From: Leptospiraceae bacterium
GTDB lineage: Bacteria; Spirochaetota; Leptospiria; Leptospirales; Leptospiraceae
Direction of reading: 5' to 3'
Length of the DNA stretch: 64,000 nucleotides
Assembly: GCA_024233875.1 (NCBI GenBank)
Contig: JACKPB010000009.1
Span: 21,191 to 85,190 of the forward strand
In this document: piece by piece, positions 45,631-54,660 of the stretch
Layout: each line of letters begins with the position of its first letter
How positions within the stretch are numbered: position 1 is the first letter of the stretch
Program-made: the position numbers and the translations under genes
Notes under the pieces: model-generated
What the model saw: only the letters and a program-made list of their open reading frames with translations
Told to the model about the DNA's origin: nothing
Databases searched by the model: none

Positions 45631-46002
45631 ATGATTATCGTTGAAGGGATAGACCACTTAAATTTAGCAGTTACTGACTTACAGAAATCAGTAGCTTTTT
45701 ACTCCGAGATCTTCGATTTTGAAATTGAGGATGATGCACATAGGGGATATGTCGTAATGACCTTAGACCCGATTAAGATTAAGTTAGTCAAAGTGGACAA
45801 AGTAGAAAATCCACTCAGTGCACTAAATATTCCACAGTTTAGTTTTGTAATGGATGTTGATGACTTCACTGAAGCCATAACAGAGTTCGAAGCCAAAGGA
45901 ATCGAAATTGTAAAAGGACCGGAAACCACAGAAAATGGTGGTGAAACTCTCTTATTCAAAGATCCGGACAACAATCTTATCGAAATTTTCTACACAAATT
46001 AA
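45631..46002 (+). CDS. VOC family protein (glyoxalase/bleomycin-resistance/dioxygenase fold)
   Basis: 123 aa, N-terminal HLNLAV…Y motif and a paired beta-alpha-beta-beta-beta module pattern. Confidence 0.65.
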   Translation: MIIVEGIDHLNLAVTDLQKSVAFYSEIFDFEIEDDAHRGYVVMTLDPIKIKLVKVDKVENPLSALNIPQFSFVMDVDDFTEAITEFEAKGIEIVKGPETTENGGETLLFKDPDNNLIEIFYTN

Positions 46003-46035: not shown

Positions 46036-47148
46036 ATGGATTACCGTTCTCAAAAAGAATTAGCAAAATCTGCAATAGAATTAGTTGAAAAGTTCCAATC
46101 CCGTTGGAAACTTCTAAATCTTCAAACAGATTCTGATCGTCTCGCTTCTTATAAAGAAAGAGCCGCATCCCCTGACTTCTGGAATGATCCGGAAAAAGCT
46201 CAGGAAATCACCAAACTCCAAAAACAAATTGAAACAAAATTAGCTCCCTGGCTGGAAATCAAACAGGAGATCCTCGATTTTCCCGATCTAATTGAACTCA
46301 CACTAGAAGAAGAAGGTGAGTCAGCCCTGGCTACTTTAAATGCCGACCTAACGGTTCTAGAGGAGAAATTTGAAGATCTAGAGATTCTTGGTGCCCTTGC
46401 CGGTCCGGAAGACTCCAGCAATGCATTTTTTAATATTCACCCCGGTGCGGGTGGGACAGAGAGCCAGGATTGGGCTGACATTCTCTTCCGTATGTATTCC
46501 CGTTATTTCGAATCAAAGGGATACCAGGTGGATATAGTTGACTACCAGGAAGGGGAAGGTGCAGGTATCAAAAATGTAACTCTCTATGTTCAGGGGGAGT
46601 ACGCTTTCGGATACCTAAAAGGAGAAAATGGAATCCATAGATTGGTTCGTATTTCTCCTTTTGATGCAAACAAACGAAGACACACATCCTTTGCATCTGT
46701 TCACGTCGAGCCCGAATTGGATGACAGTATAAATGTAGTCATAGAAGACAAAGACTTACGTGTCGACACCTACCGATCCTCAGGGGCAGGAGGTCAGCAT
46801 GTCAACAAGACTGATTCAGCAGTGCGAATGACTCACATTCCCACAGGAATCGTTGTTCAATGCCAAAATGAGCGCTCTCAAATCAAGAACCGTTCCACTG
46901 CTATGAAAATGTTGAAAGCCAAACTTTTTGAATTAGAAAAGCAAAAAAACGCTGACGAAGCGGCTAAGAAATCAGGCGAAAAGAAGGACATTGCCTGGGG
47001 ATCTCAGATCAGAAGCTATGTCTTTCATCCGTACAATATGATAAAAGACCATCGCACCGACCATGAAACTGCGAATATCGGTCCTGTCATGGATGGTGAT
47101 TTAGATCCCTTTATCATGGCGTATCTCAAATCACAGATAGCCAAATAA
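46036..47148 (+). CDS. prfB: Peptide chain release factor 2 (single continuous ORF; no programmed +1 frameshift site)
   Basis: SPF tripeptide-region homolog, universal GGQ motif ([16 protein letters not shown]), RF2-type N-terminus (…[11 protein letters not shown]…). Confidence 0.9.
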
Positions 47149-48753: not shown

Positions 48754-49731
48754 TCACTGTAGAAATTTTTCTAAATACTTTTTCAACTCGGAGGTATAAA
48801 AATTTCTTCCTATCAAATTAAAATGTGATGCATCGTAGTACAATCTTTCATCTGTTTTGAATCTTTCATCATTGATATAGACATATTTGATATGACTTGC
48901 CTCCGCACCCCGAAAGTAATTACGCGTAGGATCAAATAGAGATTCATCGAAAAGTTCGATCATAGGTGTTTCCAGAAGAAGAAACTGAACTTCGGGATAC
49001 TTTTTCATCAATTCTACAGAAAGTTCAAAATGTTTCACAAAACCTTCATCAAAATCTAAGAATTCTTTGGGATCTCCGTAGAGTTTTTTCCAGTCTTCGA
49101 TTTTCGATTCTTCCGGTGGTGTTCCTGATTGATTAGTCTCCTGAGAGTAAAGGGGAGAGACAAGAGCCAGGGTAATTGGTAACTTATCAAACATTTTTGA
49201 ATAAATGAAGTAAGCTTCTGAGTTCAATGAGTAGGATCTGAAAAGTTTCTTCATATAGGAATCAAAGCTACCTTGCCATTTGTAATTCAGATACTCACGA
49301 AATAAGCCACTGTGATAGTAGCCCTGAAGAGATTTGTATGATTCGTCACCATATCGTTTTTTATTGAAAGCAAATCGATCTGTGTGGAAAAGAATGAGTT
49401 TCGGTGGATTTTCTTTGTGCTTATCCAGATAATCTTTCAGGAAGTAGTAGCGAAATTCCATGGTTCCCCCGGCCAGAGAAAACATATCGACTTTCTTTTG
49501 AAGACCAGCGGACAATTCTTCTGAATCGATTGCCCATAGAATATTGCTGCTACCCAGGATCAAAATATCTGCTCTTTGATTCATTTTACCAAAATGATTC
49601 ATTTTATCGAATAAGGGAAATCCGGCTTTGTAACAAAAACTATCCAAAGCAAAAACCATAACAAAAAGAAAAAGAGTTTTCTTTGTCCAATCCGGAAGTT
49701 TAAAACTGGTTGTAGATGAATGTGGATCCAT
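48754..49731 (-). CDS. DUF1574-like / AlgJ-AlgX-DltD-like periplasmic protein (SGNH-hydrolase-like fold), partner of the MBOAT acyltransferase
   Basis: N-terminal TM anchor, a putative catalytic Ser block (ILILGSSN), and 32-bp overlap with the MBOAT gene. Confidence 0.45.
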   Translation of the reverse strand: MDPHSSTTSFKLPDWTKKTLFLFVMVFALDSFCYKAGFPLFDKMNHFGKMNQRADILILGSSNILWAIDSEELSAGLQKKVDMFSLAGGTMEFRYYFLKDYLDKHKENPPKLILFHTDRFAFNKKRYGDESYKSLQGYYHSGLFREYLNYKWQGSFDSYMKKLFRSYSLNSEAYFIYSKMFDKLPITLALVSPLYSQETNQSGTPPEESKIEDWKKLYGDPKEFLDFDEGFVKHFELSVELMKKYPEVQFLLLETPMIELFDESLFDPTRNYFRGAEASHIKYVYINDERFKTDERLYYDASHFNLIGRNFYTSELKKYLEKFLQ

Positions 49732-51121
49732 AAAAAACTCCCGAGAATAGTATTACAATAAATAGAAAAGAATAAAAGAAGATCATAGAATATACTTTTT
49801 TATTCGTGTATTCCAAATCTGTTTTTGTATCAAAGTATTGATCACGAACCAGTTCGACTACGACAAATAAGAACAAGATTAGAAATGCGCTTTTTTGGTA
49901 GAAAGGTAGCAATAATTCATCATTGATTACAATTCGGGGATGTAACAGACGATCGAAAAATCCCTTTAGTTGATTTTGATTTTGAACCTTGAAAAAAATT
50001 AATGAAAACACAGAAATTTGAAAAGTGAAAAACCGGGCGATCCAATTTCTCAAATTTTCATTGAAATGTAGTTTTTCATAAATTGAATCCCGAAATTCCA
50101 GGGTATACGTAGAAAATGACATATACACACCCTGGATGAATCCGTATAAGAAATAGGATATGGTAAACCCATGCCAGAGTCCCACCGCAATCATATTGAT
50201 CATAAGGCTGAGAGGTGTACCGATCCTCTCAAAATTTCTCAAACTCATCCGGAGGGGCATGAATAGATAATCTCTCAACCAGGAAGAAAAACTAATGTGC
50301 CATCTCCTCCAATAGTCTGGGATATTTGTCGCAAGATAGGGTTTGTCAAAATTTTCAGGAGAAATGATACCAAACAATCTCGCCGAACCTATAGAAATAT
50401 CAGTAAAACCTGAGAAATCACAGTACAACTGAAAAATATAAAAGTAAGGTGCACTCCAAACCATAGTGTCCGGGTACTGATCGGGAGAGGAAAAAATAGG
50501 ATTGATGTACATTCCAATACGATCAGCGACTACCAGTTTCTTAAAAAAACCATAAACTATCAATTGAATTCCTATATATAGATGAATCTTTTTAAAAGGA
50601 ATTTTCTGATTGATTTGTTCCAGAAAGTCATCCGGCCTCTGGATCGGACCGCTGGGCAATTGAGGAAAAAAGGCGATGTAGAGTAAAAAATAGAAAATAT
50701 CTTTCTCAGTTTCATATTTTTCCCAGAAGACATCCAGGAGATAACTGATCAATTTGAAAGAGTAATAAGAAATACCCAGAGGATAGAGGAAAGATTCTAC
50801 TTTTAAAAATGAAAATTCAGGGATTCCGACAAGATTCGGTAAGGACTTGAAAAAAAATATCCAGGAGATGGTAAGAAGTAAACCGGGATATAAAAATAAT
50901 TTTTTTTGATTTTCTTCGGATGCTTCTATCTTCCTTGCCAGGTAGTACACCAGAACGGAAATCACCAGCATGTATAGGGTTAAATAGAAATTAAAAAAAC
51001 TGTAAAAGAAAAGTGAAGCTAAGAGTAAAAAATAATTTTTAATTTTATGACCGGGAATCAAATGATAGATTCCCAGTACACCTGATAAAAAACCTAAATA
51101 TTTGAGGGAATTAAAATCCAT
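49700..51121 (-). CDS. MBOAT family membrane-bound O-acyltransferase (DltB/AlgI-like)
   Basis: About 11 TM helices, an invariant His in the VGLWHG block, and the conserved RRWHISFSSWLRDYLF motif typical of DltB/AlgI. Confidence 0.8.
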   Translation of the reverse strand: MDFNSLKYLGFLSGVLGIYHLIPGHKIKNYFLLLASLFFYSFFNFYLTLYMLVISVLVYYLARKIEASEENQKKLFLYPGLLLTISWIFFFKSLPNLVGIPEFSFLKVESFLYPLGISYYSFKLISYLLDVFWEKYETEKDIFYFLLYIAFFPQLPSGPIQRPDDFLEQINQKIPFKKIHLYIGIQLIVYGFFKKLVVADRIGMYINPIFSSPDQYPDTMVWSAPYFYIFQLYCDFSGFTDISIGSARLFGIISPENFDKPYLATNIPDYWRRWHISFSSWLRDYLFMPLRMSLRNFERIGTPLSLMINMIAVGLWHGFTISYFLYGFIQGVYMSFSTYTLEFRDSIYEKLHFNENLRNWIARFFTFQISVFSLIFFKVQNQNQLKGFFDRLLHPRIVINDELLLPFYQKSAFLILFLFVVVELVRDQYFDTKTDLEYTNKKVYSMIFFYSFLFIVILFSGVFYGSTFIYNQF

Positions 51122-51364
51122 TTAACCCAGTTTTTGGTGTATCACATCTATAAGTTTCCCAACATTGGGCAATCCTTGGATTTCTTTGGTAGTGAATTTG
51201 ATTTTAAATGATTTTTCGATAGCTACGATTAGATTGATATGGTTTAGAGAATCCCAACCCTTCACATCTTTGGCTGTCATTTCATCATGGATCTGAATAT
51301 CCGGCTTTTTAAAGATTTTTGTAAAAATCTCATTCAATTGATCTGTGACTTCTTCTCTACTCAT
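51122..51364 (-). CDS. Acyl carrier protein (DltC-like small carrier protein)
   Basis: 80 aa, phosphopantetheine-attachment Ser in GWDSLNHINL, 1-bp gap to the MBOAT gene. Confidence 0.75.
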   Translation of the reverse strand: MSREEVTDQLNEIFTKIFKKPDIQIHDEMTAKDVKGWDSLNHINLIVAIEKSFKIKFTTKEIQGLPNVGKLIDVIHQKLG

Positions 51365-51368
51365 TTTT

Positions 51369-53135
51369 TTAAACCTCTTCTTCTAAGAATACTTTGCTGG
51401 GATTGTACTTACTTACATCCAAACTCCAGAACGTACTTCCGTCTTCCCCGGATTCGATGCATTCAAATCCAAATTTCTGATAAAAATCCTTTACCATAGA
51501 ATTTTTGGATGTTGGGATATAGGTTCCTTTTACCTTCGTCTTTCCATTTTGGGAAGCAAGTAAAAAAATCTGATTCATCATAAATTGTTCCACACCACGG
51601 GCCAAAACCCTACAACTCATAATCCATTCGTCAATTAGATAACTCTCAGATTCATTCTTTACAATCACAACCGAAATCAAACCATAGTCTCCAAATTTAT
51701 CTTTTAATTTTATATAAAAGGGAAAATAGTTTTCCTTATCTTCCATAAATGCACTACACTCTTCTTCTGTATAACGTAGAGTTGTTAAATTAAATTGATT
51801 GGATCTCTGGATCAATTGAGCTATCCGGGGTAAATGAAAGGTATCAAATCTTTTTATCCCGATCTTCATTTCTAAAGATTTCAAATAATCATCAATATTA
51901 TTATAAGATTTTTGTAGAGACTGTCTTTCAAACTCTACTCTATACATATCTCCTCGTTCCTTATCTTCATCTGTATAGGAAACTGTTTGAAATAGATTGA
52001 GTTCAGATATATGTCTTACATACAGAGCGGGGTCTTCGGGTAATTCCGGGACAATCACTTCAGGTAAAAATTGTCTTACAAGATTTCTTTCATATGGATT
52101 ATCATCCAGAAAAACAATAGAATCATATCCAATATTCAAAGATTCTTTAATGAACTTTATATTATCAGCCTTATTATTCCAGTTAGCAACAAAAATTGAA
52201 ATGTCAGACTCTTTCAAAACCATTTCCGGATGTTCTCTGAAAGGGAGGAGTGCGTTTTCTTCCTGATTTTTACTACAAACAGCGAGAATGATTCCACGTT
52301 TTTTCAGTTCTAAAATAAAGTGTTGAAAGTCAACAAAGGGTTCTCCCTCACCTAGATGCCCGAGAGCGATTCCTTCCAATCCATCATCTCCAATCACACC
52401 ACCCCAGAGAGTATTGTCCAGATCCAAAACTACCGCTTTGACAGATCGGATTTTCAGGGAGACAACTAAATCTACAACTTCCTGAGAAATGTACGGAATG
52501 TAGTCCAGAGCACAGGGAGTTTTACTATGATACCAAAGTGTCTCATCCAGGAAATTCTTTCTTCCGTGATACGAAGCTGTCCTTTCAAAATCCAAAACAT
52601 AGATATTTTTCTGAGAGGCAGTGAAATCAGACAAATACTGATTCATTTTTCTGCTGAGGTTAACGAGAGAGTCACCTGTCTTAGTTTCGAATGTACCGAA
52701 GACATTTTCCACAGGTAAAACTAAATTAGAAACCAGGATAGGTATATGAAAGTTGTTTTGAGCATTTTGAAGAATTCCGGAAAGTTTTTCAGATTCCTCC
52801 GAAAAGAAATCTTCCCGTTTCAACTTGGACAAATAGAATTTTGTTCGAAATTGTTGGATTGTTCTAATGATTACAATTAGATCCGGTTTGAAATCATACA
52901 ATCCGGAAGATGGATTGAAAAGCTCTAATTCTATTGAATCGAAAGGAGCCTCATAAATCTCCGCCTGAAAGTCATTCAAATAAAAAAGCGTTTTGGTGAT
53001 CACATGGATTTGCTGGGTCGCACAATCTCCGAGAATCGCTAATTTGATCTTATTATTTTCCGGTTTGAAATCTATATCTCTATATTCAGAAAACAATTCA
53101 AAATAATCCAACTTTTCTAATTCATATTTGTACAT
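51369..53135 (-). CDS. FkbH-like protein (HAD-superfamily subfamily IIIC phosphatase domain with a C-terminal GNAT-like domain)
   Basis: FkbH signature VVLDLDNTLWGGVIGDDG (HAD motif I DxDxT) plus downstream HAD motifs (…CSKN…; …DDNP…). C-terminal acyltransferase-like region. Confidence 0.7.
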   Translation of the reverse strand: MYKYELEKLDYFELFSEYRDIDFKPENNKIKLAILGDCATQQIHVITKTLFYLNDFQAEIYEAPFDSIELELFNPSSGLYDFKPDLIVIIRTIQQFRTKFYLSKLKREDFFSEESEKLSGILQNAQNNFHIPILVSNLVLPVENVFGTFETKTGDSLVNLSRKMNQYLSDFTASQKNIYVLDFERTASYHGRKNFLDETLWYHSKTPCALDYIPYISQEVVDLVVSLKIRSVKAVVLDLDNTLWGGVIGDDGLEGIALGHLGEGEPFVDFQHFILELKKRGIILAVCSKNQEENALLPFREHPEMVLKESDISIFVANWNNKADNIKFIKESLNIGYDSIVFLDDNPYERNLVRQFLPEVIVPELPEDPALYVRHISELNLFQTVSYTDEDKERGDMYRVEFERQSLQKSYNNIDDYLKSLEMKIGIKRFDTFHLPRIAQLIQRSNQFNLTTLRYTEEECSAFMEDKENYFPFYIKLKDKFGDYGLISVVIVKNESESYLIDEWIMSCRVLARGVEQFMMNQIFLLASQNGKTKVKGTYIPTSKNSMVKDFYQKFGFECIESGEDGSTFWSLDVSKYNPSKVFLEEEV

Positions 53136-53252: not shown

Positions 53253-53678
53253 CTAAAGGATACCGGATTGAATTCTGGCTTCCACAGATAGTTTATTTTG
53301 AGTAATGTTGAAAATCTCAAAATCTAAAATCACAACATGAACCGATTCTACAATCTGAGAAAGAGTGCATTTTACTTCGAGTTCATCACCCACATAGATT
53401 GGAGACTTGAATTGGGTTTCAGTTGATTGAGTAAAGGATCTATCACCGGGAAAGATCGTACCAGTAAAATTGGAAAGAATACCATTGATCATGCTACCGT
53501 GAATGACTATATCCTTAAAACCTCTCTCTCTAGCATAAATAGCACTCGTATGGACAGAGCTGGTATCTTTAAAGAGATTTAGATAATTTTCATAATCATC
53601 TTTTGTAATTTGATATTTGTGTGTGACGAAATGACCTTCTTCATGATTTTGAAAAAATTTTTCGATATAATCATCCAT
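53253..53678 (-). CDS. MaoC-like (hotdog fold) dehydratase
   Basis: 141 aa, hotdog-fold pattern (…IHGSMINGILSNFTGTIFPGDRS…). Confidence 0.5.
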   Translation of the reverse strand: MDDYIEKFFQNHEEGHFVTHKYQITKDDYENYLNLFKDTSSVHTSAIYARERGFKDIVIHGSMINGILSNFTGTIFPGDRSFTQSTETQFKSPIYVGDELEVKCTLSQIVESVHVVILDFEIFNITQNKLSVEARIQSGIL

Positions 53679-53901: not shown

Positions 53902-54660
53902 TCAATGCCCACCACCGGCTTTGAATCCTCCACCGTGAACTTCTAATGTGATACCGGTAATGTATCCGGCAGCATCACTTGCTAAGAAAGCAGCTGCATT
54001 TGCTATATCATCGGGTTTTCCTGTTCTACCCAGATAAATAGCATTTTTCATGCCTTCTCTGATGTTTTCGGGAATGGCTGCTGTCATGTCTGTTTCAATA
54101 AATCCGGGAGCGATTGCATTTACACGAATTCCTCTGGATGCCAATTCCATAGCACAGGATTTTGTAAAACCAATCACACCGGCTTTGGATGCGGAGTAAT
54201 TTGTTTGACCTGCGTTTCCGTAGATACCAACTATAGAAGTCATATTAACAATTGAACCGCTTTTTTGCTTCATCATGTACTTGATAGCAGCTTGAGTAGT
54301 ATTGAATACCCCTGTCAGGTTGACCTGAATCACAGCATCCCACTGTTCTTTTTTCATTCTCATTAGGAGAGTGTCTTTTGTAATACCAGCGTTGTTTACC
54401 AGAATATCAACAGAACCAAACTCTTTATTGCATGTCTCAATTAAATTAACTGCTTCCGCATCATTAGTAACGTTACAAACAACCGGTATAGCTGTAATAC
54501 CTTTTGATTTAAACTCTTCAGCGGTAGCCTTTGTAGCTTCCTCGTTCATATCAGTAATGACGACTTTTGCTCCCAGTTCCCCAAATTTAAGTGCTATTGA
54601 TTTACCTATCCCTCTTGCAGATCCGGTAACAATCGCGGTCTTATTTTTAAAATCAATCAT
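53902..54660 (-). CDS. fabG: 3-oxoacyl-[acyl-carrier-protein] reductase
   Basis: TGSARGIGKSIA, NAG, YSASKAG motifs, within a plsX-fabG context. Confidence 0.85.
   Translation of the reverse strand: MIDFKNKTAIVTGSARGIGKSIALKFGELGAKVVITDMNEEATKATAEEFKSKGITAIPVVCNVTNDAEAVNLIETCNKEFGSVDILVNNAGITKDTLLMRMKKEQWDAVIQVNLTGVFNTTQAAIKYMMKQKSGSIVNMTSIVGIYGNAGQTNYSASKAGVIGFTKSCAMELASRGIRVNAIAPGFIETDMTAAIPENIREGMKNAIYLGRTGKPDDIANAAAFLASDAAGYITGITLEVHGGGFKAGGGH

Follow-up and report, generated by a model that had tools for sequence, protein, structure and literature searches.

What do four tightly packed genes for an FkbH-like loader, an acyl carrier protein (ACP), an MBOAT (membrane-bound O-acyltransferase) and a protein of predicted SGNH fold achieve together in a bacterium of the Leptospiraceae? 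The genes lie in a 64-kb stretch of contig JACKPB010000009.1 (hereafter, the window), where four open reading frames, ORF1 to ORF4, fill positions 53135-48754 of the minus strand (Table 1). An earlier note on this DNA had described them as co-directional and tightly packed and had read them as a Dlt-like, carrier-dependent system for O-acylation across the membrane, with FkbH in the place of DltA. The coordinates of the ORFs agree exactly with those in that note, domains, motifs and synteny support its reading, and the chemistry and the acceptor are proposed by analogy. On the basis of domains, catalytic motifs, a predicted fold and gene linkage across phyla, we think it probable that the genes encode a carrier-protein-dependent MBOAT–SGNH pathway, which would esterify an extracytoplasmic polymer (likely a surface glycan) with a glycolysis-derived C3 hydroxy-acyl group. 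We infer which substrate is used, what the acyl group is, how it passes from ACP to MBOAT and which acceptor receives it. The gaps between successive genes are 4, 0 and -32 base pairs (bp), with ORF4 overlapping the MBOAT stop by 32 bp. The stop codon of the ACP gene directly abuts the start codon of the MBOAT gene, and the ACP and the loader are translationally coupled to the MBOAT.

FkbH-like enzymes turn 1,3-bisphosphoglycerate into glyceryl-ACP. ORF1 matches the FkbH hidden Markov model TIGR01686 over residues 232-558 with 301.1 bits against a cut-off of 146.65, confirming the proposed identity as an FkbH-like HAD phosphatase/acyltransferase. The HAD-IIIC model TIGR01681 is also matched, and the N-terminal extension (FkbH_N/NEX, residues 31-224) matches PF21211 at 1e-31. 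FkbH-like proteins consist of three subdomains: NEX, phosphatase and acyltransferase (PMC12304814). In ORF1, HAD-IIIC phosphatase motif I reads D238-L-D240-N-T242 (52410-52424) and is accompanied by S288, K322 and D344-D345. The catalytic Asp pair, D238 and D240, is present, and it is invariant together with T242, S288, K322 and D344-D345 in an alignment of 15 diverse homologues from protein databases. This independent alignment is the fair test of motif conservation, because the genome loci described below were retrieved with patterns for the DLDNTLW and MSCRVL blocks, which makes motif counts among them partly circular. The C-terminal acyltransferase subdomain contains an invariant cysteine, Cys508 (51612-51614), in an MSCR block; MSCRVL is the most conserved block, and Cys508 is the obvious candidate for the acyl-S-enzyme residue. 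In a search of Protein Data Bank (PDB) sequences, the N-terminal two-thirds of ORF1 matched 3slr, the uncharacterized B. fragilis protein BF1531, with 292 bits, and no solved structure covering the C-terminal acyltransferase subdomain was found. Thousands of full-length relatives with around 50% identity occur in very different taxa; the best match, from a Logan assembly (L088), is 64% identical, and that from an uncultured Leptospiraceae metagenome-assembled genome (MAG) is 58% identical.

The characterized FkbH proteins all belong to secondary-metabolite pathways, and the window shares with the FkbH/FkbJ glyceryl-ACP genes (methoxymalonyl-ACP and tetronate ‘glycerate utilisation’ operons) a full-length FkbH, with NEX, HAD and acyltransferase subdomains, beside a stand-alone ACP. 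These genes might likewise make a glycerate-derived unit for secondary metabolism, be it a tetronate or a polyketide extender of the methoxymalonyl type, but we consider this very improbable. In place of dehydrogenases, an O-methyltransferase or FabH-like enzymes, the loader and carrier are accompanied here by an MBOAT and an SGNH protein, the context is the cell envelope, and neither the cluster nor the window was found to contain a ketosynthase, a FabH-like condensing enzyme, an FkbI/K-type dehydrogenase or an O-methyltransferase. A polyketide or tetronate cluster was rejected on the absence of condensing enzymes from both. An FkbH-domain gene is also found outside polyketide metabolism in Campylobacter jejuni, where cj1302 sits in a glycan-modification locus (flagellar glycosylation), although an MBOAT–SGNH pair is not reported there and the modification is presumably cytoplasmic. 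Judged by its domains and motifs, ORF1 is a true member of the FkbH family, apparently working outside polyketide metabolism.

The second gene encodes the small carrier protein that had been proposed. ORF2 matches the PP-binding model with 24.5 bits (cut-off 20.8) and has its phosphopantetheine attachment site, the conserved Ser39, in W37-D-S39-L (51245-51256); WDS is kept in 74 of 75 orthologous ACPs. Its identity to the module ACPs of Dyella, Binatia and a spirochaete-like relative (L003) is 45-71%. The best AcpP models give 30-38 bits, far under their cut-offs of 66-71, and a housekeeping AcpP was therefore rejected. The DltC model NF003464 gives 18.5 bits against a cut-off of 68, which places ORF2 outside the DltC equivalog.

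ORF3 belongs to the MBOAT family (PF03062, 2e-17), as the earlier note had said, and its catalytic residue, His317 in G-L-W-H-G (50168-50182), aligns with the GFWHG of DltB. DltB is the best solved relative (PDB 6bug/8jem, 103 bits) and the best NCBIfam match (TIGR04091), at 183 bits against an equivalog cut-off of 375, so that ORF3 is not a DltB equivalog. After the core, the chain continues into two extra C-terminal hydrophobic helices (residues ~403-430 and ~441-471), and its exact C-terminus, followed by the stop codon, is F468-I-Y470-N-Q-F473 (49703-49720), an FxYxxF acyl-shuttle motif. Experiments on DltX and PatA have shown that the tyrosine of this motif becomes acylated, and it passes the acyl group on to the SGNH protein (PMC12148441). 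Among the complete MBOATs of modules, 65 of 69 have the motif at their C-terminus. The MBOATs of PatA/PatB (peptidoglycan), AlgI/AlgJ/AlgX (alginate) and WssH/WssI (cellulose) likewise add two C-terminal helices that end in FxYxxF, have a catalytic His and work with a separate SGNH protein. Because its C-terminus ends in the fused motif, ORF3 is by sequence a PatA/AlgI-type and not a DltB-type MBOAT, yet one with its own carrier protein. MBOAT/SGNH pathways other than Dlt, such as the PatA/PatB-type pairs, lack a carrier because they use acyl-CoA (PMC12148441, 2025), whereas the module has a coupled ACP and loader. With FxYxxF fused to the MBOAT, a DltX-like microprotein is not needed, and the intergenic gaps leave no space for a separate small gene of the DltX type within the cluster.

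For ORF4, direct sequence searches gave nothing usable: there was no match in Pfam even at E<10 and none among NCBIfam models or PDB sequences. Its assignment to the SGNH enzymes therefore needed fold prediction and a profile search. With an AlphaFold2 model of ORF4 (pLDDT 74.5, pTM 0.72), Foldseek returned GDSL esterases and DltD (6o93) at the top ranks, and PatB and OatA-C were also among the matches. Relatives were collected by a word-indexed search (n=14) and a profile search of 1.84 billion representatives (n=489 at E<=0.001). Across 40 diverse family members, only G60, S62, P256 and H303 are invariant, with D300 nearly so, and these residues match the GxS...DxxH signature of SGNH enzymes (G60-S-S62-N at 49543-49554; D300-A-S-H303 at 48823-48834). 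A single hydrophobic stretch near the N-terminus (residues ~20-38), preceded by lysines, serves as its anchor, and we take ORF4 to be a membrane-anchored transferase of SGNH fold that is probably extracytoplasmic. A copy with 99% identity is present on a 1.5-kb Logan contig (P0121).

ORF4 had been labelled DUF1574/AlgJ/DltD-like. The SGNH/DltD-like fold and the motifs uphold part of that label; direct membership of the DUF1574 (PF07611) or DltD Pfam families, at E<10, does not hold. Among 40 distant homologues, matches were to DUF1574 in nine cases (weak), Lipase_GDSL_2 in seven, SGNH in four, DltD in three and ALGX in one. Directly upstream of the closest FkbH relative, that of L088, stands a true Pfam DUF1574 gene (L088:503-1621), linking the DUF1574 family, which is expanded in Leptospira, to the module; an hhalign comparison of the ORF4 family with this DUF1574 protein was not significant. 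The predicted fold, the motifs and the family-level links to DUF1574 suggest that ORF4 corresponds in function to DltD, PatB and AlgJ.

Are these genes linked beyond this genome? We scanned one genome per species and took 80 of at least 600 matching loci; five loci from metagenome and genome look-ups were added, two of them duplicates, giving 83 distinct loci whose gene content was assigned by phmmer and hmmsearch. An ACP is present in 75 of the 83 loci and adjacent to FkbH in 63. An MBOAT occurs in 66, and an SGNH protein of the ORF4 family in 47, adjacent to the MBOAT in 37. The most frequent gene order is FkbH-ACP-MBOAT-SGNH, of 54 co-oriented ACP and MBOAT genes 30 have a gap of at most 30 bp between the two, and even in loci with shuffled order (L004, L012) the ACP is still beside the MBOAT. 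The loci come from monoderm as well as diderm lineages in at least 15 phyla and include Leptospiraceae, Treponema, Bacteroidota, Clostridia, Alpha- and Gammaproteobacteria, Myxococcota, Acidobacteriota, Nitrospira, Verrucomicrobiota, Planctomycetota, Omnitrophota, Elusimicrobia, Bdellovibrionota, Desulfovibrio and Cyanobacteria; carriage of the module is frequent among gut Bacteroidota and Clostridia. The association of FkbH, ACP, MBOAT and SGNH genes is far beyond chance, and the synteny in relatives on which the Dlt-like reading depended is conserved over many phyla.

A tblastn search against plasmids placed the module on pSymB of around 40 Sinorhizobium meliloti strains, including strain 2011, which makes genetics immediately feasible. 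The order there is MBOAT (ending in FLYQGF), a 409-amino-acid (aa) protein, ACP and an FkbH-like gene. The 409-aa protein, misannotated as a TonB-dependent receptor, is SGNH-like, with an N-terminal anchor and GGS and DPGH motifs. An lsr operon lies alongside this module, and kps-type capsule export genes lie nearby.

Which acyl group would the module carry in the window? The earlier note overlooked a MaoC-like dehydratase gene, which has the same orientation as the FkbH gene and lies upstream of it, across a gap of 117 bp. Its product keeps the hydratase-2 Asp/His pair in D38-T-S-S-V-H43 (53550-53567; D-x4-H) and is 40% identical to the MaoC of L003 and 32% to that of Binatia. In both of these, and also in a Leptospiraceae relative (L006 = L086) and in L089, the cassette order is MaoC-SDR-FkbH-ACP-MBOAT-SGNH, where SDR is a short-chain dehydrogenase/reductase. 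MaoC was found in 18 of the 83 loci. Fusion proteins of MaoC and SDR (482-547 aa) directly follow FkbH-ACP in Nannocystis (L007:11031-12569), Nitrospira (L073:2119-3762) and a Niveispirillum plasmid (L091:10820-12268); the fusion is Pfam-confirmed in the first and last of these and deduced in Nitrospira from length and a weak 23-bit SDR match only. On the identity to in-module MaoC proteins, the recurrent cassette, the 18 loci and the fusions, we assign the MaoC-like dehydratase of the window to the module.

Because relatives have MaoC together with an SDR, in some cases as one fusion protein, a lactyl (or pyruvoyl) donor appears at least as likely here as a glyceroyl one; the earlier wording, a ‘glyceryl or glycerate-derived acyl group’, still covers either. 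The loading module of bryostatin BryA has the layout dehydratase–ketoreductase–FkbH–ACP. FkbH loading modules of trans-acyltransferase polyketide synthases are tabulated as yielding D-lactate-ACP from 1,3-bisphosphoglycerate (PMC7901079). Such loading modules share with our cassettes an FkbH, a dehydratase, a ketoreductase and a carrier, and imply a route from glyceryl through pyruvoyl to lactyl. They differ in that the module's dehydratase, a MaoC hot-dog protein, and its reductase, an SDR, are free-standing (the two are fused in some lineages) and that its product would pass to an MBOAT and not to a ketosynthase. In the window, the position of the relatives' dedicated SDR is occupied by a FabG-type reductase (TIGR01830, cut-off 297.75), which could supply the ketoreduction of pyruvoyl-ACP to lactyl-ACP; at just 31-33% identity to module SDRs, it may equally be the plain housekeeping fabG of an rpmF-plsX-fabG row.

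The same machinery could instead transfer glyceroyl (+88 Da) unchanged, the upstream MaoC being unrelated or having another role such as thioester proofreading. The 65 of 83 loci without MaoC fit this, and as they form the majority, most members of the family probably use plain glyceroyl as the donor. For the window, where a dedicated SDR was not found and 117 bp separate the MaoC and FkbH genes, we nonetheless judge unchanged transfer rather unlikely. The MaoC retains its hydratase motif, it is 40% identical to the in-module MaoC of relatives whose FkbH identity is 58-61%, and MaoC occurs without a dedicated SDR within other modules (L010, L020, L030, L043 and L053).

Other neighbours hint at further acyl variants. 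Methyltransferase genes stand between or beside FkbH, ACP and MBOAT genes at L076:10820-11785, L004:9773-11308 and L087:6597-7529, which suggests O-methylated acyl groups. Sulfotransferase and 3′-phosphoadenosine-5′-phosphosulfate (PAPS) synthesis genes lie alongside the Dyella module (L001/L002 flanks) and suggest sulfated glyceroyl, by analogy with the FkbH-loaded glycerate of suomilide. VOC/glyoxalase-family genes adjoin modules at L092:7798-8265, L068:10968-11366 and L087:7526-7924; this family includes methylmalonyl-CoA epimerase, and its members could epimerize the C2 centre of the acyl-ACP. In an Oscillospiraceae MAG, a gene for a 2,3-bisphosphoglycerate-independent phosphoglycerate mutase (PhosphMutase/Metalloenzyme; L055:9986-11287) adjoins FkbH, which is consistent with a phosphoglycerate-derived substrate.

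Taken together, the pathway may run as follows. By family precedent, the FkbH-like enzyme would capture 1,3-bisphosphoglycerate in the cytoplasm as a thioester on the candidate Cys508; the HAD domain, with Asp238 as nucleophile, would strip the 3-phosphate, and the D-glyceryl group would pass to phosphopantetheine on Ser39 of the ACP. Linkage, fusions and polyketide precedent suggest that the MaoC-like dehydratase then removes the 3-OH of glyceryl-ACP to give enol-pyruvoyl/pyruvoyl-ACP, and that a ketoreductase, the dedicated SDR in relatives and possibly the adjacent FabG here, converts pyruvoyl-ACP to lactyl-ACP; modules without MaoC, that is, most loci, would deliver glyceroyl. Like DltC with DltB, the acyl-ACP would dock with the MBOAT from the cytoplasmic side, and His317 would catalyse acyl transfer to Tyr470 of FIYNQF on the outer face, as proposed from DltB/DltX and PatA. 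Finally, modelled on Dlt and PatAB, ORF4 would take the acyl group onto Ser62 (triad Ser62-Asp300-His303) and deliver it to a hydroxyl of the acceptor.

Several points weigh against this pathway. The use of 1,3-bisphosphoglycerate by the clade of ORF1 is an extrapolation from polyketide FkbH proteins. The dedicated SDR of the closest relatives was not found in the 64 kb of the window, so that lactyl formation would require FabG or some unlinked enzyme, and glyceroyl or pyruvoyl could be the donor instead. The module of the window also sits outside any glycan locus. Some FkbH-ACP pairs come without an MBOAT and with other transferases such as WcbI, so FkbH-ACP is not exclusively tied to MBOATs. 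Finally, MBOATs with a fused FxYxxF are otherwise characteristic of acetyl-CoA users (PMC12148441), for which reason direct use of acyl-ACP by ORF3 is putative.

The last two points also bear on mere co-location. In that case, the MBOAT–SGNH pair would be an acetyl-CoA-dependent O-acetyltransferase of the PatA/PatB or AlgI/AlgJ type, as the PatA/AlgI architecture of ORF3 would allow, and FkbH-ACP-MaoC would feed a cytoplasmic acyltransferase decorating the same glycan, for example by N- or O-acylation of a sugar nucleotide. FkbH-ACP without MBOAT in around 20% of loci, the WcbI-family acyltransferase in the MBOAT's place on the Niveispirillum plasmid (L091) and the location of C. jejuni cj1302 are in line with such an arrangement. 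We find it distinctly unlikely, however, since a common target alone hardly accounts for a rare gene family co-occurring within 9 kb in 80% of cases, the ACP–MBOAT junction in the window is 0 bp with their adjacency recurring in most loci across phyla, rearranged ones included, and no candidate cytoplasmic acyltransferase was found in the window cluster.

What would the carrier-fed MBOAT–SGNH pathway acylate? In a sample of 148 flanking genes from 75 loci, the commonest families were glycosyltransferase family 2 (GT2), NDP-sugar epimerases/dehydratases, Polysacc_synt_2, GDP-mannose dehydratase-like proteins and Wzx-type Polysacc_synt. The L076 locus is flanked by Wzy_C, two GT2 genes and a hexapeptide acetyltransferase, and the Binatia locus by GT1, GT2 and PMT_2 genes. 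These glycan-synthesis flanks point to a surface glycan as the usual target, and a surface glycan is most likely the usual acceptor. The two genes nearest to a module also repeatedly include aldo/keto reductases and transketolases split into N-terminal, pyrimidine-binding and C-terminal parts.

The window differs from this pattern: the module is bordered by a lolC/E-like permease gene and the rpmF-plsX-fabG row, no glycosyltransferases were found near it, and the cassettes of Leptospiraceae relatives are also outside glycan loci. The plsX-fabG and lolC/E-like neighbours suggest a membrane lipid or a lipoprotein as an alternative acceptor here. In the window and its spirochaete-like relatives (L003, L086), however, the cassette stands alone with different flanks in each, so that it appears to move as a unit and its neighbours are uninformative. 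As the glycan-biosynthesis context is clear in other phyla and the characterized bacterial MBOAT–SGNH pairs all act on glycopolymers (PMC12148441), a lipid or lipoprotein acceptor seems improbable. Membership of the lolC/E-like gene itself in the module was rejected, since the corresponding position in L086 holds an unrelated gene of 492 aa.

Table 1 Features of the module and its neighbours in the window, with the module loci of S. meliloti
Feature	Length (aa)	Coordinates	Strand	Basis
ORF1, FkbH-like loader	588	51369..53135	-	HMM matches, invariant motifs
ORF2, dedicated acyl carrier protein	80	51122..51364	-	PP-binding HMM, WDSL
ORF3, MBOAT membrane O-acyltransferase	473	49700..51121	-	MBOAT PF03062, DltB homology
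ORF4, probable SGNH-fold acyltransferase partner	325	48754..49731	-	predicted fold, family motifs
MaoC-like (hot-dog, hydratase-2 type) dehydratase	141	53253..53678	-	PF01575 9e-11
FabG-type 3-oxoacyl-ACP reductase, candidate part only	252	53902..54660	-	TIGR01830 330 bits
S. meliloti 2011 pSymB module locus (L090)		NC_020560.1 622225-641886		
S. meliloti module locus (L092)		CP140883.1		

Elsewhere in the 64-kb window, no second MBOAT, further ACP, ORF4 paralogue or module-type SDR was found, and no Rfam families were found in the window. A scan for promoters and terminators was uninformative: promoter-like sites were fewer than in shuffled sequences, and no terminator was found between the genes. 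No anomaly of GC content was found over the module, and a horizontal-transfer signal was rejected because its GC content is unremarkable. The only tRNA found in the window is Ser-GGA (1305-1390). By eye only, a 370-aa ORF at 46036-47148 on the plus strand resembles peptide chain release factor 2, and an ORF at 45631-46002 (+) may be a VOC/glyoxalase; the lolC/E-like and prfB genes lie between the latter and the module. A programmed +1 frameshift is common in bacterial prfB genes. If 46036-47148 is prfB, it is one uninterrupted ORF and lacks that frameshift.

How, then, does the module relate to known systems? Like Dlt (DltA/C/B/X/D, teichoic-acid D-alanylation), it places a carrier gene beside an MBOAT and an N-terminally anchored SGNH-fold transferase, and it has an FxYxxF acyl-Tyr shuttle; ORF4, with DltD among its structural matches, combines the N-terminal anchor, SGNH fold and Ser-Asp-His triad of DltD. 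Unlike Dlt, it has an FkbH-type loader instead of the adenylating DltA (no AMP-binding enzyme was found in the cluster) and a shuttle motif fused to the MBOAT instead of a separate DltX microprotein. The scores of its MBOAT and ACP fall far short of the equivalog cut-offs for DltB and DltC, its predicted acyl group is a neutral hydroxy acid and not a cationic amino acid, and it is present in diderm as well as monoderm phyla. By these sequence features, the module appears to work like Dlt but is not a member of Dlt. What sets it apart is the combination of a PatA/AlgI-type MBOAT architecture with a dedicated carrier and an FkbH loader, for which we propose a function by analogy.

The earlier note knew of no characterized modification of this type, and we found no description in the literature, in which our coverage is incomplete and a prior description is possible. 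Searches on FkbH with DltB, on glyceryl- or lactyl-ACP with O-acyltransferases, and on gellan with glycerate and acyltransferase returned nothing relevant within that coverage. FkbH with MBOAT led only to suomilide/aeruginosin peptide clusters of cyanobacteria, where the two act independently, and FkbH with meliloti only to an unrelated paper on the polyketide oocydin.

We put forward, tentatively and with a little less than even confidence, the broader proposal that FkbH-ACP-MBOAT(FxYxxF)-SGNH is a widespread, unrecognized second class of carrier-dependent trans-envelope acylation, present in at least 15 phyla, that puts glycolysis-derived C3 hydroxy-acyl esters on surface glycans. The ester would be glyceroyl, or lactyl where MaoC and SDR are present, or an O-methylated form where methyltransferases are present; in this Leptospiraceae-like genome, it would be lactyl. 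If so, this second carrier-fed class would be loaded from 1,3-bisphosphoglycerate without an adenylating enzyme, tying central glycolysis to surface modification and adding to acetyl and D-alanyl in the known chemistry by which envelope polymers are decorated. Lactyl would correspond to the D-alanyl ester of teichoic acids as its hydroxy isostere, and PatA/AlgI-type MBOATs with a fused Tyr shuttle would be able to accept acyl-ACP. The module would also offer a testable genetic basis for ester-linked glycerate and lactate on bacterial glycans, and could be the source of the glycerate esters on polysaccharides such as sphingans. In gut Bacteroidota and Clostridia, such decorations could affect recognition by phages and by the immune system.

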